Source: a virus. Taken from it: 64,000 nt of DNA. The DNA lies in IMG/VR virus record IMGVR_UViG_3300035182_002586, positions 427,585 through 491,584 of that record; one strand, given 5' to 3'. Positions 7,799-47,105 of the stretch are shown here, piece by piece. The notes beneath the pieces were generated by a model that was not told the DNA's origin, made no database searches, and worked only from the letters and a program-made list of their open reading frames with translations. The translations under genes were made by a program, and so were the position numbers. Within the stretch, counting starts at the first letter, position 1. Each line of letters opens with the position of its first letter.

Positions 7799-8599
7799 GT
7801 GATCACGTCGTGTCTCGCTACTGCCGGGTATGCCGCCAAGTTGCCCGCGCTCAAGGACCGCACGTTCACGTTCGGTCCCGGCCTCATCATTCTCTTCGGG
7901 CAGAACGGCTCGGGGAAGTCGACGTTACTGTCCATTCTCGCGAGCTACTCGGGGTGCTGGGAAGCTGGATGGACAGCGTTCTCTTCCAACTATGTGGGCT
8001 TCAACGACGCCCCGTTCCCGCACAGGCTCGCTACCCGTGGGAACCAAGCAGAGGTCGCGTGGGACGGCACCCCGAGCTTCTACAGCACGGGGCCCGAGTC
8101 CGGGCAGTCGGGGTTCAACAACGCCCTCGAAGACGGTGGTGAGGACGCGGACAACTACCTCCGGAGCCTCCTGGCTCCTGGTTCGGCAGGCCAAGGCCAG
8201 ATCCAGTGGCTCAATCAGATGGAGAAGAAGCTCTCCGCGCCTCCGGATCTTCTCCGGGAAGACGGGACTCTACGCATACGTGGTCACGGTGAGGTCGAGA
8301 GGTCGAGCGTCAATAGCCTGTGGGGGGAGGCCATCGACGGCTTCCAGTCACACATCCGGTCGCTGCCCCACACGGGACCCGTGACGGTCCTTCTCGACGA
8401 ACCCGACGCACACATGTCGCTGCCGAACCAGCACACCCTCTGGACGAAGGCCATCCCGCGCCTCTCCGTTGGGCGACAGGTCATCGTCGCCACGCACAGC
8501 GCATTCGCCCTATGCGCCCCGGACGCGACCATCATCGACCTCCAGCCGGGGTACGAGGATCGGTGCCGGAAGGTTCTTCGGGCTCTTCGCGAAGTCTGA
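7799..8599 (+). CDS. SMC/ABC-type (AAA_21-like) ATPase 266 aa
   Basis: Walker A GQNGSGKST, signature-like SAGQGQ, Walker B VLLDEPDAHM, H-loop ATHS; GGAGG-5nt-GTG. Confidence 0.75.
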   Translation: MITSCLATAGYAAKLPALKDRTFTFGPGLIILFGQNGSGKSTLLSILASYSGCWEAGWTAFSSNYVGFNDAPFPHRLATRGNQAEVAWDGTPSFYSTGPESGQSGFNNALEDGGEDADNYLRSLLAPGSAGQGQIQWLNQMEKKLSAPPDLLREDGTLRIRGHGEVERSSVNSLWGEAIDGFQSHIRSLPHTGPVTVLLDEPDAHMSLPNQHTLWTKAIPRLSVGRQVIVATHSAFALCAPDATIIDLQPGYEDRCRKVLRALREV

Positions 8600-9794: not shown

Positions 9795-10421
9795 CTACGC
9801 CCCGACCCTCTCAAACAGACGACCCCCAACTTGAGGGGCGCGCGCACGCAGCCGATCATCCGCAGTCAGCCACGTGTGGTTCGCCATCCGATAGAACTCG
9901 TTGGGGTTCGTTTCCAAGAGTAGCTTCTGCGCCAACATGTGATCTGGAGTCGGCACGTAGTCCCTAATGTGGACACAATAACGCGCCACGTCGATACCAT
10001 CTTCCACGAGTACGACGTTCATGGCAGAGCCACGCTCGATACGGAAGGTCCGTCCATCGGGGGCCCGAACGTGGAAGACGTTCTCCGCTGCGAGCTGCCG
10101 GCGGGCCTCTTCGTCAAGCAGGGCATCGAGGAGCCTCTCCGCCCGCGCCGTCGCTTGCCCCCACAGCTCTTCGCGGACTGCACGATCACGAGCCCGCAGT
10201 GCCTCGAAGTCCCGTCGTATGCCCTCGGGGAGCTGCCGGAAATGGAACAGGTCGATGGTCCACGCCCGCTCTTGGTCTCCACAGCCACAGGTGAACCCGA
10301 ACCGCCGAGCGAACGCGAAGTCTTCCGTCCGACACCCCTCGTGAACGTGGTGCTCTCGGATTGCCTCTACCCACTCCCGTAGCGCCGGACGGAGTGCAGC
10401 CACACCAGGATCGTCGAACAT
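9795..10421 (-). CDS. hypothetical protein 208 aa
   Basis: ORF track; divergent from 10457 gene across palindromic TACACCacGGTGTA. Confidence 0.6.
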   Translation of the reverse strand: MFDDPGVAALRPALREWVEAIREHHVHEGCRTEDFAFARRFGFTCGCGDQERAWTIDLFHFRQLPEGIRRDFEALRARDRAVREELWGQATARAERLLDALLDEEARRQLAAENVFHVRAPDGRTFRIERGSAMNVVLVEDGIDVARYCVHIRDYVPTPDHMLAQKLLLETNPNEFYRMANHTWLTADDRLRARAPQVGGRLFERVGA

Positions 10422-10456
10422 CGCGAGGAGATCTACACCACGGTGTAGGATGGAAC

Positions 10457-11302
10457 ATGACCCGTCTTGCTTGGGCCACCGACACGCATCTCGACCGCAT
10501 GAACATGAAGCGGTTCCCGAGAGAGTTCGGCGCCAAGATCGCTGCGGACACCTCGGCGGAAGTCCTGCTCATCACCGGGGACATTGCCGAAGCGTCCACC
10601 TTCTCGAAGGCGCTCATCGGCGTCTCGGAAGGGTTTGGGGGGCCCGTCTACTTCGTCCTCGGCAACCACGACGTGTGGGGGCAGAGCTTCGTGGACGCGC
10701 ACCACAAGGCCGCGCGTCTGACGAGGAAGTACGAACGACTCACCTGGCTCACGGATGCAGGGGTCACCCTCCTGTCCGAGACGACCGCCCTCGTGGGGTT
10801 CGACGGTTGGTACGACGCCAAGTGGGGTCCCACCAACCCCCCGAAGACACGCATGGGGGACTGGTCCAGGATCAAGGACTTCCAGCGCACTTGGAACCTG
10901 ATGGCCATGACCTTCGAGGCGAGGGTCGACTTGATCATCCATCAGTGCCAGGAGAGGTGCGGCCTCATCGTGCAGTGGATCGAGAGGGACCTCCGGGCCG
11001 CGCTTGCCGTGCGGCCAAAGGTGGTGGTCGCCACGCACGTGCCGCCCTACCCGCAGAACGCCATCGAGCACATCGAGGGCAGGTCCGAAGAGGAAGACCG
11101 GTCCTGGCTCCCCTGGTACACGAACAAGGCGCTCGGGGACATGCTCCTGCGGGTCGCGGACGAGCACCCGGACCGGGAGATCCTCGTGCTCTGCGGACAT
11201 GCACACGCCGAGCACAACCACGAGGTTCTACCCAACCTGCGCGTCCGAACGGGGAAGGCCACGTACGGCGCGCCCTCGCTCGCCGGGGTGCTCGATTTGT
11301 GA
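10457..11302 (+). CDS. calcineurin-like metallophosphoesterase
   Basis: motifs DTHLD, GDIAE, GNHD, ATHVPP, CGHAH; GGTGTAGGATGGAAC-ATG. Confidence 0.8.
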   Translation: MTRLAWATDTHLDRMNMKRFPREFGAKIAADTSAEVLLITGDIAEASTFSKALIGVSEGFGGPVYFVLGNHDVWGQSFVDAHHKAARLTRKYERLTWLTDAGVTLLSETTALVGFDGWYDAKWGPTNPPKTRMGDWSRIKDFQRTWNLMAMTFEARVDLIIHQCQERCGLIVQWIERDLRAALAVRPKVVVATHVPPYPQNAIEHIEGRSEEEDRSWLPWYTNKALGDMLLRVADEHPDREILVLCGHAHAEHNHEVLPNLRVRTGKATYGAPSLAGVLDL

Positions 11303-15038: not shown

Positions 15039-15794
15039 ATGCGCAAAATTGCCAACACCCACGAGCTGACCGCTGAGCTGGCACGCATCTCTGCTTACGC
15101 GGGTACTCCGAACCCGTCACGGCAGGTGCTCGCAGCGGATCTCCGGGTGCTCGCGAGCCGCCTGGAAGAGCGGACCATCGAGGCTGCTCTTCCAGGGCAG
15201 GACCCCCTCAAGAACGCCGACATGCTGAAAAGGCTGTTGGGTTCGATGAAGGTCATGCAGATGTCCATCGAACACGTCGAGGGACAGGCCAAGCACATTC
15301 TCGCAGAAATGGCGAAGGCCATCCCCTTGATCGCGGACCCCGTGTTCAAGGGCGAGGCGGAAAAGCTGTTCACCAAGGGCGCACACGCTCCGCTGCTCAT
15401 GTTCGCGAACCACAGCGCGTCACCCCTCTACAAGCTCCTCTCGGACGCTGCAACCCTCGGCTTCAAAGCCAAGGACGACCCGGGCATCGGGGCGCTCCGG
15501 CAACTCCACTCCAAGCTCCTGGACGGGACCTCGCACCTGGGTAAGGCGGTAGGCTCCGTCGGGGCTGAGGCAATGGACGTACTCGGCCACATCTACAACT
15601 GGCCCGACACGCACCCCGAGGCGAAGGCCCACATGGCGCCCCTGTTCGCCGCCATCAACAAGATCTCGTCGCTGTCCCCGTACAAGGCCCCGAAGGGCTC
15701 GGGGCTGCTTGCACCCGCCCCCGTCATCCACGGCGCGATGCACGCGGTCGAAACCCTCATCGGGATGTTCGAACAGGCCGCCAAAGCGGTGTGA
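15039..15794 (+). CDS. hypothetical protein 251 aa
   Basis: ORF track. Confidence 0.65.
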   Translation: MRKIANTHELTAELARISAYAGTPNPSRQVLAADLRVLASRLEERTIEAALPGQDPLKNADMLKRLLGSMKVMQMSIEHVEGQAKHILAEMAKAIPLIADPVFKGEAEKLFTKGAHAPLLMFANHSASPLYKLLSDAATLGFKAKDDPGIGALRQLHSKLLDGTSHLGKAVGSVGAEAMDVLGHIYNWPDTHPEAKAHMAPLFAAINKISSLSPYKAPKGSGLLAPAPVIHGAMHAVETLIGMFEQAAKAV

Positions 15795-15829
15795 TGGATC
15801 GCCCGCGTGTCCCCGTTGTAGATAGGATC

Positions 15830-16372
15830 ATGCCCGCTCAAAGCATTCGCTACGAGATCCACGACTGCACGGTCCGCTTCCACGCCCTGGAGTACCAGGC
15901 GCAACGTCAAGCTGCGGCGCAACAGCGGTTCCACGGCGGCACGTGGCGGCCCGCGCAGGTCGAGGGCTACCAAGGGTGGCTCGCGGTGGACGACCAGGGA
16001 CACGCCTCCGACTGGTCGGGCAACGTTCCTTCCCACATCGTGGCGCAGCTCAAGATTCCTGCCCGCAAAGTAGACGGAGAAGACATGCTTCTGAGCCTCG
16101 GTTACGGCATGATCGCGGCCGGTACGACGGCCTACGCGATGAAGAACACGCTCGGCCCCATGGTCATCGGCCTCTGTCGAAGAGGCAACCTCACGCTTAG
16201 CAACGTCCTGGTGACGTCGGTGGCTGCCGTCCCCCTCAGCGCGCTCTGCGTACTTGCGGGCGCGCTCTGGCCCGTGTACCTGCCGTACATCGGCTACAAC
16301 GCGTGGAAGTACCCCAACTGGAAACCCTACGTCCCCGGCAATCCTCTACCCGACACTCAGGAGGGCTCGTGA
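15830..16372 (+). CDS. hypothetical membrane protein 180 aa
   Basis: full motif GTGATGGATCG-N15-GTTGTAGATAGGATC-ATG. Confidence 0.7.
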   Translation: MPAQSIRYEIHDCTVRFHALEYQAQRQAAAQQRFHGGTWRPAQVEGYQGWLAVDDQGHASDWSGNVPSHIVAQLKIPARKVDGEDMLLSLGYGMIAAGTTAYAMKNTLGPMVIGLCRRGNLTLSNVLVTSVAAVPLSALCVLAGALWPVYLPYIGYNAWKYPNWKPYVPGNPLPDTQEGS

Positions 16373-16572
16373 AACGCTGGCTGAACCAACTCCCCTGGCC
16401 TTTCAAGATCGCCCTCTACCTCGGCACGCTCGTCGTGCTGGCGGGGAGGATGGCTGCGACTCCGCTCCCGATCTTCATCGTGGTCATGCTCGGGTTCTGC
16501 CTTCTCTTCCACGCGATCTTCGACCCGCACCCGAGCCTCGTCCAGGAGGATCAGCGCGAAAAAACCCCCTAA
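16369..16572 (+). CDS. small membrane protein 67 aa
   Basis: AGGAGGG-GTGA overlap; two TM-like segments. Confidence 0.5.
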   Translation: MKRWLNQLPWPFKIALYLGTLVVLAGRMAATPLPIFIVVMLGFCLLFHAIFDPHPSLVQEDQREKTP

Positions 16573-16573
16573 T

Positions 16574-16612
16574 CACTTGCCACCGCTCTGCTCGTGCTAT
16601 GCTAGGCAAGTG
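16574..16612 (+). promoter_or_regulatory. 8-bp inverted repeat CACTTGCC..GGCAAGTG enclosing TTGCCA-15-TATGCT; GTG start of HNH gene 7 nt after -10 (possible leaderless promoter/operator)
   Basis: seen directly; no SD before GTG. Confidence 0.35.
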
Positions 16613-17335
16613 AACAAGAAGTTGGTCGAAGAGGCTGTGCAGGCGAGCACATCCTACCGTCAGGTCGCCAAGCGTCTGGGGCTGTACCCTAAAGCTGCCA
16701 AAGCAGCCGTCTTGGAGAGTGGTGCGTCCACCGCTCACTTCGACTTCGGGCGACGATCATATAGCTACGTAGGCAAAACGTACAACCGTCTCACCATACA
16801 AGAAGTCATCAAGGACCCAAACGGTCGGTGGTTGTGCCGGTGTGACTGTTCGTGCGGAACGAAGGACGTACTGAAACGCCTCGACGGAGTTCTAAACGGG
16901 CACGTCCTCTCGTGTGGGTGCGCCTACCGTCACCGTCCCTCTATGTTTGGAGACGGGAACCCTGCTTACACAGGGTGTGGGGAACTGTCTGGATCTCGTG
17001 TGTACTGGATCAAAACGGAAGCAGCTCGTCGAGGGGTCCCATTTTCTGTGTCAAAGGAGTACCTCTGGCGGCTGTTCGACAAGCAAAATGGTCTCTGTGC
17101 CTTGTCGGGGGTGAAGCTAATGTTCGGTAGAGGGAACTCCAGACAGGGGGACGCATCCCTTGACCGTATCGACTCCTCTCGTGGTTATGTCGAGGGGAAC
17201 GTCCAATGGGTCCACAAGGACGTGAATAGAATCAAGTGGGAGTTCGATCAGGAGTACTTTCTGTCGATGTGTGACAGGATCAGCGCCCATACTCGTACAC
17301 GTAAACAAGTCGCCCCTGAAACGCTTGCTGAATGA
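16610..17335 (+). CDS. HNH homing endonuclease with N-terminal HTH
   Basis: SLDRIDSSRGYVEGNVQWVHKDVN HNH motif; AT-richer codon usage than neighbours. Confidence 0.8.
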   Translation: MNKKLVEEAVQASTSYRQVAKRLGLYPKAAKAAVLESGASTAHFDFGRRSYSYVGKTYNRLTIQEVIKDPNGRWLCRCDCSCGTKDVLKRLDGVLNGHVLSCGCAYRHRPSMFGDGNPAYTGCGELSGSRVYWIKTEAARRGVPFSVSKEYLWRLFDKQNGLCALSGVKLMFGRGNSRQGDASLDRIDSSRGYVEGNVQWVHKDVNRIKWEFDQEYFLSMCDRISAHTRTRKQVAPETLAE

Positions 17336-17822
17336 GCGGTTCGATAACTCGCCAATCACCCTGTGCAAGTCCCGTCCCAATTTTGGGCATGTGAATGCTG
17401 GCCTGCGTCCCCCCGAGCGTGTCGGGGAGCACCGACGTGATGAACTCCACGCGCCGGAGACAGTCCGCGAGGGCTTCGTAGCGGATCGGCGGGCCCTTGC
17501 CCCCACCTCGAAGCCCCTGCTGCGCGATCATGTTCGCGACGTACGTGTCGGGCGTCACCTGTACGAGCTGCACCTGACCGAGGGCGAAGTCACCGGTCGT
17601 GGTGATGATCTTCCCCTTCGTGGGGTTCTGCAACCGCATGCCCTTCAAGATCCGGTGCTCGGACCACTCGCGGTAACACGCCTCGGGCTGGGGCCAGCGC
17701 TTCGAGAGGGCCAAGACGAAGCCTGCGCCCCATTTCCCATCCGTGTTGCAGATGTGCGGGATGACGTGCACCCCCTTCGTCTGTGGGTCGGTGGCGTCTC
17801 CGCGCAGGTACGTGATCGGCAT
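17280..17822 (-). CDS. macro domain (ADP-ribose binding/hydrolase) protein
   Basis: GDATDP, VIPHICNTDGKWGAGFVLAL, IHMPKIGTGLAQGDW; GGTGTACGCTCGCCCCC-ATG. Confidence 0.75.
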   Translation of the reverse strand: MPITYLRGDATDPQTKGVHVIPHICNTDGKWGAGFVLALSKRWPQPEACYREWSEHRILKGMRLQNPTKGKIITTTGDFALGQVQLVQVTPDTYVANMIAQQGLRGGGKGPPIRYEALADCLRRVEFITSVLPDTLGGTQASIHMPKIGTGLAQGDWRVIEPLIQQAFQGRLVYVYEYGR

Positions 17823-17843
17823 GGGGGGCGAGCGTACACCTGA

Positions 17844-18113
17844 TCAGGGGTCGGTCCACAGCGAGTGCGACATCGCATCGACCCCGCACTTCGAGCACGT
17901 GGCCGAGGAGCCGCTGCACCCCCGCCCGCTCCCCTTGCACAGGCGACACGTCTCGTCGGTGGCGTTGCCCTCGGCATCGAGCTTCTTCCCCTCGCCGTAA
18001 CAGGAAGCGCAGGAGTCGGTCCAGGTCTTCTCCGGGCCGTCCCACTGGTGTGCCCCGCCTTTCGGGCACACGTCCGTCACACCACAGGAGAAGAACGCGG
18101 CGACCTCGCTCAT
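17844..18113 (-). CDS. small Cys-rich protein 89 aa
   Basis: regular CxxC spacing; GGTGTAAGAGCTACGTC-ATG. Confidence 0.55.
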   Translation of the reverse strand: MSEVAAFFSCGVTDVCPKGGAHQWDGPEKTWTDSCASCYGEGKKLDAEGNATDETCRLCKGSGRGCSGSSATCSKCGVDAMSHSLWTDP

Positions 18114-18191
18114 GACGTAGCTCTTACACCGGGAGGACCCCCAGGCGCGAATAGCTCCACAACACGGATCCCCTTGTCATGTCGCGCAGTT

Positions 18192-18614
18192 ATGATCTTC
18201 GAGACGATTCAACGTCCGGCGACCCCCGTTCCCCCGGGGCCGATCGGACACTGGCCGAAGCCCACCTTCGGACAGAAGGCGGCCGAAGCCGTCGCCCGTC
18301 TCGTCGGATCGTGGACCTTCATCATCGGGCAGAGCGTCGTTCTTGTGGTGTGGGTAACACTGAACGTCCTCGCGTTCTTGCGTCACTGGGACCCGTACCC
18401 CTTCCTGCTACTCAACGTGATCCTGTCTCTTCAAGCTGCCTACACGGCGCCGATGATCTTGATGGCACAGAACCGTCAAGCGGAGTACGATCGCGCTGTT
18501 CTGCACTACAACTACCAGATGATGGCGGAGGTACTTCGCCAGGTGGCCCCCAACACACTCCAGAGGGTCACGGAACAACCACACGTGACCGATGGTCAAC
18601 GACAACGGCGCTAA
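18192..18614 (+). CDS. DUF1003 family membrane protein
   Basis: GSWTFIIGQ..DPYPFLLLN..MAQNRQ. Confidence 0.65.
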   Translation: MIFETIQRPATPVPPGPIGHWPKPTFGQKAAEAVARLVGSWTFIIGQSVVLVVWVTLNVLAFLRHWDPYPFLLLNVILSLQAAYTAPMILMAQNRQAEYDRAVLHYNYQMMAEVLRQVAPNTLQRVTEQPHVTDGQRQRR

Positions 18615-19128
18615 GTGCAACCAGCCTTTCCGAAAGCGCAAGAAGACCTCAAAGTACTGCTCCCCCGAGTGCTACTTTGCTGCGACCAGAGGAAAGACCA
18701 GACCCCCTCGACCTCCTGAGGTTAGAGCGAAGATCTCTGCCTCTCATATGGGGCGTCCCGTGTCAGAGGAGACCCGACGTAAGCTCTCGGAGTGGCGTCA
18801 AGGGCGTAAGGCAGGGCCTATGCCTCTGGAGGTGCGAGCTAAGATCTCTGCTGCTCATAAGGGACGCAAGAAAAGCCCTGAGCACATTGCGGCGATGGCA
18901 CGGGCGCATTGTAAAGGAAGGCCCCCTATGCCCGCTGCGGGACGATGGGCCGACCCCCGCTACTACACTTGGCAGGCAGCCGTGTTTGAGAGAGACAAGC
19001 ACACTTGCCAGTCTTGCGGGTACCCCCGTGGAGGCTCTCGACAGGGCCATCGCTCGGGGTGGGTGGCCGAGCATGATCTCCAGCCGGCGGTTCCGGATGT
19101 ACCAGGGGCGGCCGGGAGAGGTCATTGA
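18592..19128 (+). CDS. NUMOD3-repeat / degenerate HNH endonuclease-like protein
   Basis: two EVRAKISAxH NUMOD3 units, ERDKHTCQSCG HNH start then loss of HH motif/frame; lower GC. Confidence 0.6.
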   Translation: MVNDNGAKCNQPFRKRKKTSKYCSPECYFAATRGKTRPPRPPEVRAKISASHMGRPVSEETRRKLSEWRQGRKAGPMPLEVRAKISAAHKGRKKSPEHIAAMARAHCKGRPPMPAAGRWADPRYYTWQAAVFERDKHTCQSCGYPRGGSRQGHRSGWVAEHDLQPAVPDVPGAAGRGH

Positions 19129-19132
19129 GAAG

Positions 19133-19339
19133 ATGGACGAGGAGACGCGGGCCCTTCTCCGCGAACTACGGAGCGACGACCTCGCCCCTGAGAAGACCAG
19201 CCGATACGCAGCCTGGCTCGGCCAGAGCCACGAGGACGACCAGGCCAGGCAGTTCTCCGAGATGCTCCTCAAGCACGACCGGGAAGTTCTTCGCCTCCCC
19301 CCTCCGCGCGTACGCAAGGCGCAGGTCCCGTGGGAGTGA
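19133..19339 (+). CDS. hypothetical acidic helical protein 68 aa
   Basis: tail of 18179..19339 frame looks coding only from ~19097. Confidence 0.4.
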   Translation: MDEETRALLRELRSDDLAPEKTSRYAAWLGQSHEDDQARQFSEMLLKHDREVLRLPPPRVRKAQVPWE

Positions 19340-19367
19340 CCCTCTCGGTGTAGAGGCGGTCGTGAAC

Positions 19368-19610
19368 ATGACGATCAGAACCGCATTCGAGGAGATGCAG
19401 TCCCTCATCCGAGACCAGGGCGCCATCGGCACCGGAGCGGCGTTCGTCGCCAACACCTGCTTCCGACTCTCGGCCCTGTGCTTCCACACGGCTCTCGCGG
19501 ACGGGTTCCGTGGCACCCGGACCGGGCGCGGGCTGCGTCAGGTCGGGCGGAAGCTCGAAGGCGCGGCCGACTACCTTTGCGACCGGTACGACCCCGACAA
19601 GGGCAAGTAG
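19368..19610 (+). CDS. hypothetical protein 80 aa
   Basis: GGTGTAGAGGCGGTCGTGAAC-ATG. Confidence 0.55.
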   Translation: MTIRTAFEEMQSLIRDQGAIGTGAAFVANTCFRLSALCFHTALADGFRGTRTGRGLRQVGRKLEGAADYLCDRYDPDKGK

Positions 19611-21211: not shown

Positions 21212-21595
21212 ATGAAGGTCCCGGCCCGCGTCGTTCTGTCGAAGCCCCTCAGTCGCCACGCCTCCAAGGTGCCCGGCTGCTTCGAGATGAACGCCTACGT
21301 CATCGGCCAGGCCCCACAGCTCGAAGCCGCCACCGAAGCGTTCGAGCTGTGCGTCAAGGCGTTCCACGAGCAGCTCGAAGCTCTCGGTGTCGAGGTCATC
21401 ACGTCCAAGGCCGAGCTGCGTGCCCTACTCGGGGAGGAGGCCATCGCGATCCTCCCCCGGAAGGAACACTACGCCCCCCACGGCAAGCACATTTGCCCCA
21501 CGACCTTCGTGTCGGAGAAGCACCTGACGACGGACCCCGAAAAGGTGACCTGCCGCAACTGCCTCAAGCTGATGAAGGCGGGCAAGGTGCCGTGA
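21212..21595 (+). CDS. hypothetical protein 127 aa
   Basis: GGTGTACATGAGGAC-ATG. Confidence 0.65.
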   Translation: MKVPARVVLSKPLSRHASKVPGCFEMNAYVIGQAPQLEAATEAFELCVKAFHEQLEALGVEVITSKAELRALLGEEAIAILPRKEHYAPHGKHICPTTFVSEKHLTTDPEKVTCRNCLKLMKAGKVP

Positions 21596-30844: not shown

Positions 30845-32899
30845 CTACGAGGCGCCGTTGGTCGGCGTCGCCGGGGTCTTCTTGCCGACCTCGGCGCGGA
30901 TCTGGTTCCGCAGTGCCTCGGTCTCCGGGCTCCGCTTGGGGGCCGCCGAGAGCACCGTGTCAGCCGCGAACTTGTCCGACATCACCATCGTCAGCAGAGT
31001 CTCCAGGATGCCCGAGCCCTGGCCGTTCTGACTCCCGACGACGATGCGAGGCACCACATCGACCTTCGACTCACGGATGGCGTTCGAGAAGCCCTCCATG
31101 ACCTGCTGAGTGAGCTGGAACTTCGGACCACCGTAGGCAGCCACCTGCTCCTCGATCGCCACGGCCTGCGCGATACCGACGCGTGCAGCCCGGTCCGCCT
31201 CGGCTTCGGCGAGGTAGCGAACCTTGTCCGCTTCGGCGCGCGCCATCGCGCGAACCTTGTCGGCCTCCGCTTCTGCCATCGCACGGATCTGCGAGGCCGT
31301 CTGAATCGACCGCTGGTACTGCGCCTTGCCCTCGTTCTCCTGCGTCCGGATGGAGATCTCGGACTCGGTGAGCTGCTGCTGAGCCCTCGAAACCGCCTCG
31401 GCCTCGCGAAGCGCGCGTTCCTTCTCCGCAGCCTTCTGCTGGCGGTCGTAGGTGCCGATCTGCTCTTCGGCGATCTGACGCGAGCGGAGCTGCGTCAGGA
31501 TGGTGCCGATCTGCTTGTCGTTGTCGTCCGGCGACGGCGTGCCGATGAGGACCTCTTCCAGCTCCAGGTTGTACTGCGCGAACTTGGCCTTCATCCCCAC
31601 GGCCGACTCGCTCTGGATCTCGCTGCGCTCCTGAATGAGCTGGATCAGCGTCCGGGTCTGCGCCACGTTCTTGAAGTACGCGCTGACCATCGGGTCGAGC
31701 GTCTGGTTCACGAGGCGCTGGATGTCACCGAAGCGCTGGACAACGAGCGGCGCCTTGCGGTAGTCGATGTGCACGACAACCGAGAGCGGCAGCCAGGGCT
31801 CGAACGCGTCCTTGGTGATGAGCCCGACCTCGCAGAGGTTCTCGTCGAACTTGTGAGCAGACACTTCCGTCTCTTCCCACTTGAGGATGAAGTTCGTGGT
31901 CGGGACCGTGACGATCTTCCCGGCGTACGTGTTGAACGCGTACTTGCCCGGCATCAGAGCCTCGTCCCACACGCCGCGCTGACCCTTGCGAACCAGCTCC
32001 CCGTGCGAGTAGTCCGACCCCGAGAGGTCCGCGCCCGCCTCGCCCGTGTAGGAGACTACGACGCCGACCGTGCCGACCTCGATGACCGTCTTGGGGATCA
32101 GCTCGACCGTCGCGAAGAGCCGGTTGATGTAGTAGGTCCCGTCGACGAGCACCTGCATCTGGCGCCCACGACGGCCGCCCGCAGCCAGGAAGAGCAGAGG
32201 GTCCTGGAAGTTGTTGTGGTAGGAGGGCTTCTCCGGATCCTCTCCGACGAGCGGGGCGATCACGTCCCCGTGGGAGAGACCCGGGCCGTCGTGCACGGTC
32301 ACGACCCCGATCTTGTCGTCCGTGCCCCGGATCACGATCGGCTTGAAGCCATCACGCTCCCGGATGATGGTCGACATCTTCTCCAGCTCGTGCTTGTCAT
32401 TCGACAGGCTCAGCCCATACACCTCGTCCTCGGTGAAGACCGCGAAGAGGGCCGGGTTGATGGCGTACGTCCCCTCACGGAGGATCGTCATCTGCGGGCC
32501 CCGCTGACCTCCCCCTGCGAGGAACGCCCGAGCATCCCCGTAATTGGCGCACCCCACCACGCATCCTGCGAGGGTCTGCGTCGCTTCGAGCTGCTTGCCG
32601 TCGCGCGCGAAGACGTAGCCGATCTTGCCCTGCGGCACGGTGACCAGCGGCGCCTTGTGGACGCGGTACTGAATCGGCGTGAGCCAGTGGATGCCGCCAC
32701 GGAGCATGTCGGGCTGGTAGCCCGCCTCGCCCCCGAGGGCCATGAAGCCGCTCTTGACGGAGCCCTTGCGTGACCACCGTTTCTCAACGACGGCCACGCG
32801 ATTGTTCGGGATGACTCGTACCCCTGAGAGGAGCACAAAGAAGACGAGGAGGCCCAAGGCCACCTCGATGAGGAATGCCGGTTCGGGCAGGTGGTGCAT
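30845..32899 (-). CDS. flotillin / SPFH (band 7) family membrane protein 684 aa
   Basis: N-terminal TM, SPFH core (RVIPNNRVAVVEKRWS..PIQYRVHKAPL), long EA-repeat coiled coil (AEAEADKVRAMARAEADKVRYLAEAEADRAA); GGTGTACCACCGCGCC-ATG. Confidence 0.85.
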   Translation of the reverse strand: MHHLPEPAFLIEVALGLLVFFVLLSGVRVIPNNRVAVVEKRWSRKGSVKSGFMALGGEAGYQPDMLRGGIHWLTPIQYRVHKAPLVTVPQGKIGYVFARDGKQLEATQTLAGCVVGCANYGDARAFLAGGGQRGPQMTILREGTYAINPALFAVFTEDEVYGLSLSNDKHELEKMSTIIRERDGFKPIVIRGTDDKIGVVTVHDGPGLSHGDVIAPLVGEDPEKPSYHNNFQDPLLFLAAGGRRGRQMQVLVDGTYYINRLFATVELIPKTVIEVGTVGVVVSYTGEAGADLSGSDYSHGELVRKGQRGVWDEALMPGKYAFNTYAGKIVTVPTTNFILKWEETEVSAHKFDENLCEVGLITKDAFEPWLPLSVVVHIDYRKAPLVVQRFGDIQRLVNQTLDPMVSAYFKNVAQTRTLIQLIQERSEIQSESAVGMKAKFAQYNLELEEVLIGTPSPDDNDKQIGTILTQLRSRQIAEEQIGTYDRQQKAAEKERALREAEAVSRAQQQLTESEISIRTQENEGKAQYQRSIQTASQIRAMAEAEADKVRAMARAEADKVRYLAEAEADRAARVGIAQAVAIEEQVAAYGGPKFQLTQQVMEGFSNAIRESKVDVVPRIVVGSQNGQGSGILETLLTMVMSDKFAADTVLSAAPKRSPETEALRNQIRAEVGKKTPATPTNGAS

Positions 32900-32937
32900 G
32901 GGCGCGGTGGTACACCGAGTCCACCCCGAACGAGGCC

Positions 32938-34047
32938 CTACTTTCCCTTGCCGAGGAACTCCTTGATCGAGGGGAGGATCGCATCGCGGTCTGCGATCTG
33001 GCTCAGGGTCACCCGATCGTCGTCGGGGAATGCCGTTCGGAGGTCCTTGTAGAACTGCCCCGACCCGTACGGAGAATCGACCTGTCCGTACGAGAACACG
33101 TTCACGACGGGCAGGAGGCGATCGCGCAGGACCTTGATGCAATCCTCCGTGTCCTCAGTCGACCAGTTGTCCCCGTCGGAGAAGTGGAAAGGGTAGATGT
33201 TCCACGAAGATGAGGGGTAGTCCTTGTCGATGATCTTCATGCACAGGTCCAGAGCCGACGAGATCCTCGTCCCTCCAGACTCGCGCGTGTGGAAGAACGT
33301 GTGCCGGTCGACCTCGCGCGCCTCTGCGTCGTGGGTGATGAACCGGGTCTCGATGCCCTTGTACTGACGTCGGAGCCAGAGGTCGATCCAGAAGGACTCC
33401 AGGCGGACGATCTCTTTCTGGTCGTCGCCCATCGAGCCCGACACGTCCATCATGTAGATGACGACGGCCTGCGCCTGCGGCTTGAGGGTGATGTCCGGCG
33501 CGCGGTAGCGCCAGTCGTCTCGCACGGGCATGAGCACGGGCTGGTCGGGGTTGTAGTCCCCCGACGAGATGGCGCGCTTGAGCGTCTCCTTGTAGCTGCG
33601 CTTCATGTGGCGCAGCGACCCGGGCCCCACTCTGGAGATCCCCGTGTACTTGTTCGAGTCCTGGATGATGTTCTCTTTGCCCTTGTTCTCGATCTTCGGG
33701 AGTTGGAGTTCGTCTCCGAGCATGTCGGCGAGTTCATCCATGGAGATGTCCGCCTCGATCCCGTGCTTGTCCGTGTCCTTGCCGGCCTTCTTGCCCTTGC
33801 CCTTCTGGTCCGGGTCGCCGCCCACGGGATCGCCTACGTCCCCATCCCCCTGTCCTGCGCCCCCCGCCTGCTTGTCACCGTAGACGAAGCGCGGCATGTC
33901 GATCTGAGGGATCGGCACGGACACGACATCCTTGCCGACGCGGCCGAGAAGCTCCCCCGAAGAGATGTACTTCGAGAGGTTCCCGCGCACCTTCTTGCGG
34001 ATGATGTCCTTGAACCTCGAATGGTCTGCGCCGATGCGATTCGACAT
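32938..34047 (-). CDS. DUF444 / YeaH-YhbH family protein with VWA domain 369 aa
   Basis: VVIYMMDVSGSMGDDQK..GGTRISSALDL..IYPFHFSDGDNWS; GGTGTACCGGGAGGCTCC-ATG. Confidence 0.8.
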   Translation of the reverse strand: MSNRIGADHSRFKDIIRKKVRGNLSKYISSGELLGRVGKDVVSVPIPQIDMPRFVYGDKQAGGAGQGDGDVGDPVGGDPDQKGKGKKAGKDTDKHGIEADISMDELADMLGDELQLPKIENKGKENIIQDSNKYTGISRVGPGSLRHMKRSYKETLKRAISSGDYNPDQPVLMPVRDDWRYRAPDITLKPQAQAVVIYMMDVSGSMGDDQKEIVRLESFWIDLWLRRQYKGIETRFITHDAEAREVDRHTFFHTRESGGTRISSALDLCMKIIDKDYPSSSWNIYPFHFSDGDNWSTEDTEDCIKVLRDRLLPVVNVFSYGQVDSPYGSGQFYKDLRTAFPDDDRVTLSQIADRDAILPSIKEFLGKGK

Positions 34048-35561: not shown

Positions 35562-35969
35562 ATGGCCCTCCGCACGGTCGGAGATCCCCGGTCCGAAGTC
35601 GTGGTCCTTGGACCCCAAGGACGCATCGTGGGCCATATTTTCGTCGACCTCAGCCTCTACGGCATCGACGACCCCGTTCTCGATGACCAGGACCTACGAC
35701 CCTTCATCATCAACTGCCTCGACGGGATCATCCTCGTCGCCCACCGGCAGGTCGACCGCAAGTCGCGGTTCCTCGAACTCGGGCCCATGGATCTAGAGCA
35801 CGAGCCGGTTCTGCGCGAAGCCTTCGAGATGCCCGCCGCGCACATGTACACGAGCGACTACATCAGGCACACGCAAGCGGTGAACAACACCGAAGTCTTG
35901 CGGATCAAGGGGTTGGCCGGAGCCCATTTCGGACGACGGGCCCGTGCATCCAGTGGTCTCCCGAACTGA
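35562..35969 (+). CDS. hypothetical protein 135 aa
   Basis: ORF track; 3' end overlaps convergent RNA ligase gene. Confidence 0.4.
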   Translation: MALRTVGDPRSEVVVLGPQGRIVGHIFVDLSLYGIDDPVLDDQDLRPFIINCLDGIILVAHRQVDRKSRFLELGPMDLEHEPVLREAFEMPAAHMYTSDYIRHTQAVNNTEVLRIKGLAGAHFGRRARASSGLPN

Positions 35970-36567
35970 CGTGATCCTTTCGGACCCACTTTCCAACCGC
36001 GCGTGAGAACTCGCCCTCTCCGAAGCCGCAGGCCCACCGAACGACGACGCCCTCCCTCTCCCCACCGCAGGCTGACGGCTGCACCGCGAAGCGCTCAACG
36101 ATGGCCTGGAGGTCCTGCGCTCGGGGTGCTGGAGCGGGCTGTGCGAGAACCGGGACTGTCGGTAGCCCGAGGGACGCCGCACACTCCTCGACCTCGGCCC
36201 ACGAGTGCCAACGGAGTGTCTGCGCGTTGCGTACTCCGAAGACGGTCAGGTAGGCGGGCAGCGCCGTGTAGGCGATCGAGTGCTTCGCCCAGAGCCACTC
36301 CCCGAACACCTGGAGGTTGTCGGGGATGCTGTCGCGCAACGACGCCCACAGAGCCTTGAAGGCGTCGAAGCTCGGGTGCGACGGCGGCTTCCCGTGGCTG
36401 CGCGCAAAACACCCCTCCCGTTCGAGGCTCACGTTGCTGCCGTCGAGCTTCTCGGTGAAGACGAGGGGCACCTTGAGGAGCGAACCGACGCTCTTCATGC
36501 GCTTGTCGTCGCTCTCGCCTCCAGGGGAGAACGGGAAGTGGGAGGTGCGGGGGTACTTGAGGCTCAT
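35905..36567 (-). CDS. ATP-dependent RNA ligase (Rnl/RNA_ligase family)
   Basis: N-term KYPRTSHFPFS and nucleotidyltransferase motif I TEKLDGSN. Confidence 0.7.
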   Translation of the reverse strand: MSLKYPRTSHFPFSPGGESDDKRMKSVGSLLKVPLVFTEKLDGSNVSLEREGCFARSHGKPPSHPSFDAFKALWASLRDSIPDNLQVFGEWLWAKHSIAYTALPAYLTVFGVRNAQTLRWHSWAEVEECAASLGLPTVPVLAQPAPAPRAQDLQAIVERFAVQPSACGGEREGVVVRWACGFGEGEFSRAVGKWVRKDHVSSGDHWMHGPVVRNGLRPTP

Positions 36568-40965: not shown

Positions 40966-41517
40966 TCACTTCCTGGAGTCGTGTGCGGCCACAACTTTGC
41001 GGCATAGAGCCACGAACTCCTCGTCAGACATGTCGTGCTTCGCAGTGTTGACCTCCAACAGAACCCATCGGAGGTTACCCCTTACGGAAAGGCCGCCTTT
41101 AGACCGCGGTACTATGTGATCCAGGCTAGCGTTGACCCCTGGAATAAGCGGCTCACCTGTCACCGCACACAGCCCACACTGTTCATCCCAGATAGACTGT
41201 AGAAGGGCCGTACCACCGTTCTTAGTTTGGAGCCCATATGGATTCCCGATGCCCTGGAACCAGTGGTACAGACAGAGAATGTTCGTCACCGCCTTCTGCT
41301 TACAGCGAATGCACCACCCGTTCGCCAGTCGCGCCCCTTTCCAAGACTTGATGTACGTCCTGTACTGTTCTCGTTGTTCACTGGTCAGAGGTTTTCGAGT
41401 GGTGCGGCGGCACTCCTTACAGGGCATTCTCGGCCGCCCACTCGTCATCGAGTAGAAGTCTTTTCGAGGTTTGGGGAGCGAGCAGTCCCGGCACCGGATC
41501 AGTTCTACGTCTGACAT
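40966..41517 (-). CDS. HNH endonuclease
   Basis: CGLCAVTG..ASLDHIVPRSKGG..NLRWVLLEVNTAKHD; markedly lower GC. Confidence 0.8.
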   Translation of the reverse strand: MSDVELIRCRDCSLPKPRKDFYSMTSGRPRMPCKECRRTTRKPLTSEQREQYRTYIKSWKGARLANGWCIRCKQKAVTNILCLYHWFQGIGNPYGLQTKNGGTALLQSIWDEQCGLCAVTGEPLIPGVNASLDHIVPRSKGGLSVRGNLRWVLLEVNTAKHDMSDEEFVALCRKVVAAHDSRK

Positions 41518-41533
41518 TTGCTACCTAAGAGCT

Positions 41534-42544
41534 ATGACACACCTCGACAAGATCGGCTTCTACACCCTGCAAGACGAACGCGCCCGCACGTGTAGCACCA
41601 CGTCCCCCATGACACGGGCGTGCTTCATGATCACCGGGCGTTGTAACTTCCGTTGCGTTTATTGCAACGGCTCGGTGTGCGACCGGGACTTCACCGTCGA
41701 GCAGGTTGGCGCGCTGCTCACGGACCTAGCCAACCACCAGATCCAGGCGGTCCGCTTCACGGGCGGGGAGCCGACCTTGCACCGTGACCTGCTCACGATG
41801 GTTCGGACCGCGCGCGACCTCGGGATCCCGAAGATCGCCGTCTCGACGAACGGGGCCGCACGCCCCGAGCTGTACCGCGAGCTGGTCGAGGCCGGGGTCA
41901 ACGACTTCTCGATCTCGGCCGACTGCCAAGACCTGGAGCTGGCCGCGAAGCTCTCGGGCCGCCCGGGGACGTGGGACCGGGTGAAAGAGAACATCCGGAT
42001 GCTCTCGAAGCTCACCTACGTGATCATCGGGACCACCATCACGGAAGAGAACCTCGCGCAGATCCCGGAGACACTGGCGTTTCTCGGAGCCCTTGGGGTG
42101 GCCGACATCAAGCTGGCGACGGCGACACAGCTCAGGAGGGATATCCCCCTCGACATTCTCGACAAGATCTCGCCCGAGCTGCTCGAACGGATGCCCGTCC
42201 TACGCTACCGGATCGAGCACTACAAGGCCGGGAGACCGGTTCGGGGGCTCGTCGAGGGTCGGGACAGCCACCACTGCTGGTGGGTCCAGGACGACATCGT
42301 GCTGACCCCCGATGGCCACTACCCGTGCATCGTGTACCCCCGGGAGAAGGGGACGCCGATCGGACCCCTCGCGTCCGTGGCGGAGATGCGGGAAGCCCGC
42401 CTCGCGTGGGCGCGCAGCCGGGACACCCACGAGGATCCCATCTGCGTGCCCTACTGCATGGACATCTTCGCCGACTGCAACAAGCGGATCGAGGACCTCC
42501 AGGGGCTCGTCCCGGCTTCCAGGCTGAGGCGAACCACGGCCTGA
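41534..42544 (+). CDS. radical SAM protein, MoaA-like with C-terminal twitch-like Cys region
   Basis: CNFRCVYC, GGEPTL, VSTNGA; C-term HHCWW..DGHYPCIV..ICVPYC..DC; start 17 nt from divergent HNH start. Confidence 0.8.
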   Translation: MTHLDKIGFYTLQDERARTCSTTSPMTRACFMITGRCNFRCVYCNGSVCDRDFTVEQVGALLTDLANHQIQAVRFTGGEPTLHRDLLTMVRTARDLGIPKIAVSTNGAARPELYRELVEAGVNDFSISADCQDLELAAKLSGRPGTWDRVKENIRMLSKLTYVIIGTTITEENLAQIPETLAFLGALGVADIKLATATQLRRDIPLDILDKISPELLERMPVLRYRIEHYKAGRPVRGLVEGRDSHHCWWVQDDIVLTPDGHYPCIVYPREKGTPIGPLASVAEMREARLAWARSRDTHEDPICVPYCMDIFADCNKRIEDLQGLVPASRLRRTTA

Positions 42545-46586: not shown

Positions 46587-47105
46587 ATGATGCCCCGCAA
46601 GAACATGACGATCCGTGGGAACTACGCTCTCTTCTGGGGCCAGTGGCCGTCCAACTGGGAGGCGTCCCCCTTCACCATCGACGGCAAGAGCTACACGTGC
46701 GTCGAGCAGTGGATGATGGCGGAGAAGGCTCGCCTCTTCGGCGACACCGTGGCGGAGGCCCGCATCATGGCGACTGCGGACCCCGCGGATCAGAAGCGCT
46801 ACGGCCGTGGCGTGAAGGGGTACGTCGAGGACCAGTGGGCGGCTGTCCGCTACCAGATCGTGCTTCGAGGCGTCGTCGAGAAGTACAGGCAGAACGAGCA
46901 CTTGCGGGAGAAGCTCCTCGCGACGGGAGACCTCCAGTTCGTCGAGGCGTCCCCCGAAGACCGGGTGTGGGGCATCGGCATGCGCGCGACGGATCCCGGT
47001 GCCGACAACCCCCGCCAGTGGCGGGGCCAGAACCTCCTCGGCAAGGCCACGACGGAAGCGCGGGAGACCATCCGCGCGGAGATGGCCCTCGCAGGCATCC
47101 CGTGA
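46587..47105 (+). CDS. NADAR (YbiA/DUF1768) domain protein
   Basis: NYALFWGQWPSNWE..YTCVEQWMMAEKARLFGD..RYGRGV..RVWGIGM..GQNLLGKA. Confidence 0.8.
   Translation: MMPRKNMTIRGNYALFWGQWPSNWEASPFTIDGKSYTCVEQWMMAEKARLFGDTVAEARIMATADPADQKRYGRGVKGYVEDQWAAVRYQIVLRGVVEKYRQNEHLREKLLATGDLQFVEASPEDRVWGIGMRATDPGADNPRQWRGQNLLGKATTEARETIRAEMALAGIP

Follow-up and report, generated by a model that had tools for sequence, protein, structure and literature searches.

The 64,000-nucleotide stretch of viral DNA analysed here (hereafter the window; positions 427,585 to 491,584 of the IMG/VR record IMGVR_UViG_3300035182_002586) carries on its minus strand, at 17280..17822, a gene for a macrodomain protein of 180 amino acids (aa). 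Judging from sequence comparison and a predicted structure, this macro protein is a stand-alone and apparently catalytically competent mono-ADP-ribosyl hydrolase of the SCO6735/BT1257/T4-Tk.4 type, falling within the ALC1/TARG1-like class. By analogy with its closest characterised relatives, we are inclined to believe that it serves the phage as a counter-defence against DarT2-like ADP-ribosylation of DNA.

Identification of the macrodomain protein

Searched against PDB sequences, the macro protein matched SCO6735 (5e3b) with an E-value of 2e-43 and BT1257 (2fg1) with 6e-37. With a family profile built from 120 homologues, the values for the same two proteins became 5e-72 and 1.5e-67, followed by ALC1 (2e-19), TARG1 (1e-9) and DarG (2.5e-4), and the profile alignment to SCO6735 and BT1257 covered positions 2–157 of 158. 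Such matches lie far beyond chance and bear out the macrodomain that a preliminary description of this DNA had recognised from three signatures: GDATDP (residues 8–13), NTDGKWGAGFVLAL (26–39) and IGTGLAQGDW (148–157). Among the PHROG families, phrog_335 was matched at 4e-21. No match to Pfam Macro (PF01661), nor to any other Pfam family at E<=0.1, was obtained for the macro protein, and for this reason its identification rests on PDB, PHROG and structure. A precomputed PF01661 match is present in only some of the homologues; the absent match is a limitation of the PF01661 model and does not count against the macro fold.

The AlphaFold (AF2) model of the protein, with a mean predicted local distance difference test score (pLDDT) of 90.4 and a predicted template modelling score (pTM) of 0.88, displays the three-layer alpha/beta/alpha macro fold with an ADP-ribose-binding cleft. 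Foldseek ranked BT1257 and SCO6735 at the top, with template modelling (TM) scores on the target of 0.90 and 0.89, respectively, and then ALC1, Poa1p, TARG1 and DarG. Nearly all of the top 50 PDB matches were macrodomains at a probability of 1.0, the exceptions being designed hydrolases of the same fold. Structure prediction and comparison, which had been proposed as a check, thus confirmed the macrodomain.

The coding signal of the gene is strong, with a guanine-cytosine (GC) content at third codon positions (GC3) of 0.82 and an overall GC content of 63.4% vs. 64.6% for the window. Three further open reading frames (ORFs) at this locus—17271..17843 (+), 17590..18069 (−) and 17743..18000 (+)—were rejected as antisense or shadow frames of real genes: their GC3 phase is that of the real genes, and their matches in other loci coincide with those of the macro gene.

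Active site and relation to known ADP-ribosyl hydrolases

To map the active site, we combined a pairwise alignment with SCO6735 with the mutagenesis data available for that enzyme (PMC9411070). Asn27 and Gly126 of SCO6735 correspond to N26 and G149 of the macro protein, both invariant in all 120 homologues; His24 corresponds to H23 (conserved, 119/120), Gly128 to G151 (113/120) and Val25 to I24, a conservative change at a position occupied by Ile or Val in 117 of the 120. Gln85 corresponds to Q101, which is Gln in 119/120 homologues and replaces the catalytic Lys of DarG and TARG1. In SCO6735 itself, Gln85 sits at the position of TARG1 Lys84 and DarG Lys80, and the Q85A variant is inactive (PMC9411070). 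The catalytic-site residues, whose loss had been named beforehand as an argument against hydrolase function, are therefore intact on alignment (H23, N26, Q101, G149 and G151), and the protein is very probably an active hydrolase of the SCO6735/Tk.4 type.

Relative to SCO6735, the macro protein carries an 18-aa insertion after helix 2 (residues 58–75, RLQNPTKGK..TTGDF, of low pLDDT), common to about 40 of its closest metagenomic relatives, and a second insertion of 7 aa at residues 127–133. The former was considered as a phage-specific signature and rejected, as viral homologues differ widely in the length of this loop (0–20 aa).

SCO6735 from Streptomyces coelicolor (PDB 5E3B) and BT1257 from Bacteroides thetaiotaomicron (2FG1/2AFC) belong to the same macrodomain subgroup as the macro protein, to which Foldseek aligns them structurally with about 44% identity and a TM score of 0.9. 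The catalytic Gln, Asn27, His24 and the Gly126/Gly128 loop are all kept, and the proteins are alike in being single-domain, stand-alone and encoded next to no DarT gene. Unlike these two, the macro protein is phage-borne, has the two insertions described above, and shows Ala in place of Lys34 and Arg in place of Lys89. SCO6735 removes thymidine-linked ADP-ribose from DNA and rescues both E. coli and S. coelicolor from DarT, which it also inhibits directly (PMC9411070).

Among phage proteins, the relevant relative is T4 Tk.4. A tblastn search with the macro protein matched the tk.4 genes of T4, RB32 and RB51 at 26–27% identity (26.7% for T4), 91% query coverage and 4e-6, while hhalign aligned the macro family profile to T4 Tk.4 over 145 columns with a probability of 98.2% and an E-value of 4.7e-14. 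Tk.4 is likewise a phage-encoded single-domain macrodomain, homologous to the macro protein over its full length, with the same Gln at the catalytic column, and neither protein has a Lys at the Lys34 column. The two differ in that Tk.4 is only about 25% identical, lacks both insertions and comes from a 169-kb enterobacterial phage, whereas the macro protein comes from a high-GC huge phage. Under the name AdfM, Tk.4 is needed against DarTG2, and its deletion sensitises T4 (bioRxiv 10.1101/2025.11.20.689424).

The macro fold is also shared with PhiKZ gp104, an AdfM described as a jumbo-phage orphan antitoxin against DarTG2 (PMC13309987), and with the DarG2 macrodomain (Thermus aquaticus 5M3E, M. 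tuberculosis 5M3I). Both do the job that we propose for the macro protein, namely the removal of DarT2-made thymidine-linked ADP-ribose, but they represent a different clade. Against PhiKZ gp104, the macro protein gave a BLASTP E-value of 0.021 over 34 residues and an hhalign probability of 5.6%; against the DarG model NF048014 of NCBIfam it scored 17.3 bits (cutoff 250), and against PADLOC DarG 16.3 bits (E 0.0013). In addition, the catalytic Lys80 of DarG is Gln in the macro protein, and the second, C-terminal, DarT-binding domain of DarG2 has no place in a protein of 180 aa and one domain. No darT was found adjoining the macro gene, nor any ADP-ribosyltransferase family among the 115 ORFs of the window. 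Hence, of the comparison to DarG suggested in the preliminary description, the shared fold holds while a DarG-type assignment does not, and on sequence grounds the macro protein would work like an AdfM in the SCO6735/Tk.4 branch and not in the DarG2 branch.

A similar counter-defence logic—a phage orphan antitoxin-like ADP-ribosylglycohydrolase—is known from the NADAR hydrolases AdfN and DarG1, AdfN acting against DarTG1 (PMC11825919), although their fold is unrelated and their substrate is guanine-linked ADP-ribose. The window has a NADAR-domain gene of its own at 46587..47105 (+), encoding 172 aa (start read from the translation) and matching Pfam PF08719 at 1.3e-46 and PADLOC PDC-M42C at 1.7e-41. 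It is a separate gene lying 29 kb from the macro gene, a related context outside the macro locus. Since the NADAR superfamily includes the DarG1/AdfN guanine-ADP-ribose hydrolases and is the second ADP-ribosyl-hydrolase superfamily in the window, this phage carries two different families of nucleic-acid de-ADP-ribosylases. In another viral locus (L021), a NADAR gene comes right after the macro gene.

Proposed role in counter-defence and its alternatives

Under the role that we favour, a host DarT2-like ADP-ribosyltransferase would put ADP-ribose on the thymidines of phage single-stranded DNA, and the macro enzyme would remove it during infection and so restore replication, acting as an AdfM-like, orphan antitoxin-like counter-defence. 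The NADAR protein would cover guanine-linked (DarT1-type) modification. The macro gene would probably be transcribed together with the Cys-rich gene upstream of it, from a divergent region shared with a DUF1003 gene (see below). The earlier proposal of a candidate antidote to DarT-like defences thus remains the best reading, because the closest characterised relatives, SCO6735 and T4 Tk.4/AdfM, counter DarT and DarTG2, and it is strengthened by the NADAR gene of the window.

Several observations weigh against this role. The SCO6735-type family is multi-substrate, acting on protein Glu/Asp and on RNA uracil ADP-ribose, and DNA need not be the target; by analogy, side activities of the macro protein on Glu/Asp-linked protein and uracil-linked RNA ADP-ribose are plausible. 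The neighbourhoods of macro genes vary across phages and form no conserved operon. A survey of 145 immediate neighbours covered 73 distinct viral loci, near-identical contigs included, and most often matched the Pfam families NAMPT (5), DSPc (4), PTH2 (4), thioredoxin (3) and DprA-like (3), further ones being YpsA-SLOG (2), Fpg (2), RlaP (2) and NADAR, NUDIX and NAD-ligase (1 each). Of these, NAMPT, YpsA-SLOG, NADAR and NUDIX count in favour of the proposed role, but the adjacency of NAMPT fits a role in NAD/ADP-ribose metabolism equally well. The check for transferases, for its part, covered 64 kb of a genome of about 620 kb. Finally, Lys34 of SCO6735, which positions DNA together with Lys89 and whose K34E replacement leaves the enzyme nearly dead on DNA (PMC9411070), is not conserved and corresponds to Ala33 of the macro protein; Lys89 is conservatively changed to R105. 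The loss of Lys34 is nevertheless compatible with a DNA substrate, because this column holds Ala in 36/120 homologues and Ser in T4 Tk.4, and Lys30 is nearby.

The macro protein might instead erase protein ADP-ribosylation, taking Glu/Asp-linked mono-ADP-ribose off phage or host proteins that had been modified by a host defence transferase, or by a phage transferase encoded elsewhere in the 620-kb genome and in need of reversal or timing. SCO6735 does remove Glu-linked ADP-ribose from proteins (PMC5087735), including PARP1 E988Q (PMC5087735; PMC9411070), its K89E variant is even better on protein (PMC9411070), and the residue that has become Ala in the macro protein, the equivalent of Lys34, is important for DNA and not for protein substrates. 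We nevertheless regard such a function as unlikely. A Pfam scan found no ADP-ribosyltransferase domain among the window ORFs, which argues against the reversal of the phage's own transferase within the window, and no transferase is present in the 25 most frequent of the 42 Pfam families matched by the 145 neighbours of phage homologues. Moreover, the Lys34 column varies in T4 Tk.4 too, and the sole genetic evidence for a phage homologue, that for T4 Tk.4, concerns the DNA-targeting DarTG2.

Small molecules offer another set of candidate substrates, the enzyme being then a Poa1p-like ADP-ribose-1''-phosphate phosphatase or an O-acetyl-ADP-ribose deacetylase that would supply free ADP-ribose to phage NAD+ salvage or clear by-products of RNA repair. 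PHROG and many phage records do label the family "phosphatase" or "Poa1p-like", and the JGI label is O-acetyl-ADP-ribose deacetylase; these names are, however, annotation transfers, and the assays of SCO6735, the characterised homologue nearest to the macro protein, were mainly made with macromolecules. In structure, Poa1p is a neighbour too, yet a far more distant one (19–21% identity, TM score about 0.65) than SCO6735. The genomic setting is similarly divided: NAMPT is the commonest immediate neighbour in the survey (5/145 proteins), accompanied by NUDIX, RlaP and NAD-ligase, and the window encodes an RNA ligase (35905..36567) and a metallophosphoesterase (10361..11302) whose homologues recur near phage macro genes, but no NAMPT, Tpt1 or NMNAT was found by the Pfam scan of the 115 window ORFs. 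Overall, a metabolic function strikes us as improbable. It is quite improbable, moreover, that the protein counters RNA ADP-ribosylation or another NAD-derived signal, as a hydrolase or a binder, and not a modification of DNA. SCO6735 and TARG1 reverse uracil-linked RNA ADP-ribosylation (PMC13036486), RNA-targeting ADP-ribosylating defences are known from work cited in PMC11825919, and among the loci of macro homologues L005 carries Acb5 and L004 carries YAcAr and ADP_ribosyl_GH. On the other hand, SCO6735 is inactive on 2'-OH RNA ADP-ribosylation (PMC11833690); the Results of the same paper report it inactive on 5'-phosphate-linked ADP-ribose too, although activity on RNA phosphate ends is described in its Discussion. 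There is no evidence connecting the SCO6735-type family with cyclic ADP-ribose signals, and a pure sponge is made less likely by the catalytic residues being intact.

If the proposed removal of thymidine-linked ADP-ribose holds, the macro protein would be a further case of phage orphan antitoxin-like enzymes directed against DNA ADP-ribosylation, this time in a high-GC phage of about 620 kb. It opens no new mechanism and is a further example of a trick known from phage T4: the enzymology was described with SCO6735 in 2016/2022, and the role in phages with T4 Tk.4 in 2025 and PhiKZ AdfM in 2026.

The Cys-rich gene, the divergent spacer and the DUF1003 gene

The macro gene is preceded by a gene for an 89-aa Cys-rich protein (17844..18113, −; GC3 0.89), which lies 21 nt upstream and is co-oriented with it, as had been described; owing to this short gap, the two genes are probably co-transcribed. 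The product has the features of a rare, small, zinc-finger-like protein. It carries an outer pair of motifs, C-x5-C ... C-x2-C, with an invariant His after each half, and two inner CxxCxGxG motifs (CASCYGEG and CRLCKGSG) that occur in 3/4 members of the family, although its match to Pfam DnaJ_CXXCXGXG reached only 0.085. Positions C10, C16, H22, C73, C76 and H83 are invariant in four homologues. Only 3 homologues came out of a search of 5.8 billion proteins and 48 clusters out of 1.84 billion proteins with a profile, while tblastn against phages gave no match; the AF2 model is unusable, with a pLDDT of 43.

The preliminary description had called this protein a partner of the macro protein. The two genes do adjoin each other in the same orientation, and both occur in the close relative L103, but this status is weak: L103 is the only relative in which the pairing was seen, and there an opposite-strand gene lies in between; homologues of the Cys-rich protein occur in three other phage-like contexts that are not beside macro genes; and the pairing is lacking in two other contexts of macro homologues and in all 80 IMG/VR loci, the macro homologues of L004–L009 having no Cys-rich gene. 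The adjacency may therefore reflect shared ancestry alone. We see only a very slim chance that the Cys-rich protein is a true partner of the hydrolase—for instance, a protein that stoichiometrically binds or inhibits a DarT-like transferase, or a subunit targeting DNA—so that the pair would reproduce the two activities of DarG2. Were this the case, enzymatic reversal and direct neutralisation of the toxin could be divided between two polypeptides, and the DUF1003 protein could be a third component.

Between this pair and the DUF1003 gene lies a divergent intergenic region of 78 nt (18114..18191), the presumed promoter region. It contains the conserved blocks GACAAGGGGATCC, GCCTGGGGGTCC and CCGGTGTA, common to the equivalent region of L103; no sigma-70 consensus was found in this spacer. 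We also observed a GGTGTA element about 12–17 nt before the start codon (ATG) of the Cys-rich gene and of the macro gene alike (within 18114..18135 and 17823..17843, respectively, −), in the window as well as in the syntenic L103 (4/4 cases), which could be an unusual ribosome-binding or promoter element. The DUF1003 gene itself (18192..18614, +) encodes a membrane protein of 140 aa and matches Pfam PF06210 at 4.6e-29.

Endonuclease-like neighbours and the question of a mobile cassette

The macro and Cys-rich genes had been described as bracketed by two HNH-type homing endonuclease genes. On the left, the gene at 16610..17335 (+) is indeed GC-poor (55% vs. 64.6% for the window; GC3 0.62) and falls into PHROG families annotated as endonuclease, HNH or endonuclease VII (phrog_3322, 1.9e-23), and its homologues, scattered in unrelated phages, are annotated as HNH endonucleases in Streptomyces phages. 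No Pfam, NCBIfam or PDB match was obtained for it, and the canonical His is absent: where a paralog in the window reads SLDHIV..GNLRWV..VNTAKH, this gene reads SLDRID..GNVQWV..VN, the catalytic His of the HNH (beta-beta-alpha-metal) motif being replaced. Its overlap with the 3' end of the macro gene is real and convergent, but spans 56 nt (the last 18 codons) and not 55. Low GC content and absence from L103 mark the gene as a free-standing, sporadic insertion of foreign composition. The canonical paralog, at 40966..41517 (−) with SLDHIVPRSKGG...NTAKH and GC3 0.65, adjoins a radical-SAM gene (41471..42544), and its presence means that homing-endonuclease-like genes are not rare in this genome.

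On the right, the ORF at 18592..19128 (+; GC 59.6%, GC3 0.62) is best regarded as a homing-endonuclease remnant, with element-specific DNA at about 18615..19000. It carries NUMOD3 (Pfam 8e-08) as two repeats of 44 nt lying 111 nt apart. The presence of NUMOD3 and the degenerate state agree with what had been described, but no nuclease core (HH/N/H), of either the HNH or the GIY-YIG kind, was found in any frame. The last 35–45 or so codons overlap, out of frame, the 5' end of the next native gene, a small gene at 19028..19339 (+; start candidates 18986, 19028 and 19073), which shows high GC3 in its frame from about 19020 and is 61% identical to a 113-aa gene beside DUF1003 in L103. Furthermore, the DUF1003 gene, missed in the preliminary description, separates the Cys-rich gene from the NUMOD3 ORF, so this ORF does not directly flank the pair.

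The loci L103 and L104 hold the closest macro homologue (63% identity) and are syntenic with the window. The shared order comprises the 113-aa gene, DUF1003 (66%, alike in position and orientation), the divergent spacer, the Cys-rich gene (64%), the macro gene and a small transmembrane protein homologous to that of 16303..16572, with a homologue of 15791..16372 further on; L103 has, in addition, a gene for 88 aa on the opposite strand, which parts the Cys-rich gene from the macro gene. L103 lacks the NUMOD3 element, a gap of 32 nt separating DUF1003 from the 113-aa gene, and it also lacks the HNH-like gene, in whose place there are two small unrelated genes. Because L103 keeps the block without either element, and because the low GC content of both agrees, the comparison indicates that the DUF1003/Cys-rich/macro block is resident in the phage lineage, and that the HNH-like gene and the NUMOD3 remnant are later, independent and lineage-specific selfish insertions into a plastic accessory region.

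Such a gene order largely refutes the mobile cassette proposed earlier, in which the macro and Cys-rich genes would be cargo mobilised by two flanking homing-endonuclease genes. It is true that endonuclease-like genes occur on both sides, and that the HNH-like family stands beside the macro gene in L023, L040/41 and L071 too, an association that might arise, for example, if the conserved macro gene contained a homing site or had one nearby. However, the macro and Cys-rich genes are native in GC and GC3, unlike their GC-poor endonuclease-like neighbours. DUF1003 stands between the pair and the right-hand element, in which a nuclease domain is missing, and no unit bounded by flanking repeats was seen: a single candidate repeat, of 21 nt, flanks the HNH-like gene alone. 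The cassette is, in our opinion, hardly credible. The repeat in question (86%, 16365/17312) was rejected as a target-site duplication of the HNH-like gene, as it is at chance level: about 0.1 chance matches are expected, the copies lie in different frames, and chance repeats of similar size are present.

As a separate observation, the SLD(R/K)(I/L)D...GN.xW HNH-like family adjoins an SCO6735-type macro gene in four independent phage contexts (L023:1266-1991, L040:5171-5785 of L040/41, L071:6433-7698 and 16610..17335 of the window), and in two of the four, the window and L071, the two genes converge and overlap at the 3' end of the macro gene. Three of five independent matches of the family lie within 300 bp of a macro gene; with numbers so small, the family may have a homing-site preference for macro genes.

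Phage context and distribution of macro genes

The longest contig recorded for the sequence cluster of the exact macro protein (JGI and Logan sources) measures 620 kb; contigs retrieved for this cluster were of 1–39 kb and 99.9–100% identical to the window. The proteins of the window match only jumbo or huge phages, and the genome context is that of a huge phage. No match was obtained when 16000..19500 was compared by megablast with 50,697 phage records, and a scan of bacterial genome contigs gave only 4 distant Bacteroidota/Opitutaceae matches, uninformative on the host.

Relatives of the macro protein occur in at least 421 IMG/VR contigs with GC contents from 26% to 71%, many of these contigs being 200–527 kb long. 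Although the macro loci form no conserved operon, a recurring NAD/ADP-ribose theme runs through them, and SCO6735/Tk.4-type (Gln-type) macrodomains often stand beside genes of NAD salvage or ADP-ribose metabolism. Such breadth points to a widespread pressure from thymidine-ADP-ribosylating defences or from NAD-based attacks related to them.

Some of these loci deserve comment in their own right. In L004 (the 227-kb ERZ27279942 contig) and L005, the macro homologue P0004 lies in what looks like a counter-defence island, an accessory region with further genes for ADP_ribosyl_GH, YAcAr, Acb5, a Dam-type methyltransferase and a type IB topoisomerase. Apart from the macro gene, the window and the L004 locus have just one gene in common, which encodes a 127-aa protein with a C-terminal CxxC (21212..21595, +); its homologue (L004:8621-8992, 35% identical) lies about 2 kb from the macro gene there. 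The metallophosphoesterase at 10361..11302 (+), which is calcineurin-like and lies 6 kb from the macro gene in the window, has homologues in four viral loci (L017, L019, L055 and L059), at distances of 0–5 kb from the macro gene there, and a link to ADP-ribose breakdown is conceivable.

Other features of the window

Only 18 Pfam families were matched among the ORFs of the window. No tRNA, other Rfam family or sigma-70 promoter was found in it, and a single weak terminator, below the shuffle expectation, lies inside the NUMOD3 ORF.

A motif of about 40 nt, ATGGATCGATCC-N(~10)-TGTAG(N)AG(N)GAC-ATG, is present in five copies, all on the plus strand and each ending exactly at a start codon (from 8599, 19840, 29458, 42555 and 52206 to the next ATG). 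Its 12-mer core gave 6 matches at no more than one mismatch vs. 0.38 expected, and the motif recurs at L103:2356-2400, before the extra 88-aa gene. Containing the palindrome GGATCGATCC, the motif probably represents a phage-specific promoter or leader element.

Two more loci may be mentioned. The ATPase encoded at 7799..8599 (+), of the AAA_21/AAA_23 type, matches the PADLOC models of AriA, GajA and PtuA at about 1e-8 to 1e-11 and is, by these matches, a phage-encoded ABC/OLD-like ATPase. A DUF444/YeaH-like vWA protein (32938..34047, −; Pfam 2e-85, phrog_19072 7e-81) is encoded next to a 765-aa protein (30845..33142, −), which makes an unusual phage gene pair, with homologues noted in huge uncultured phages and in Thermus and Bacillus phages.

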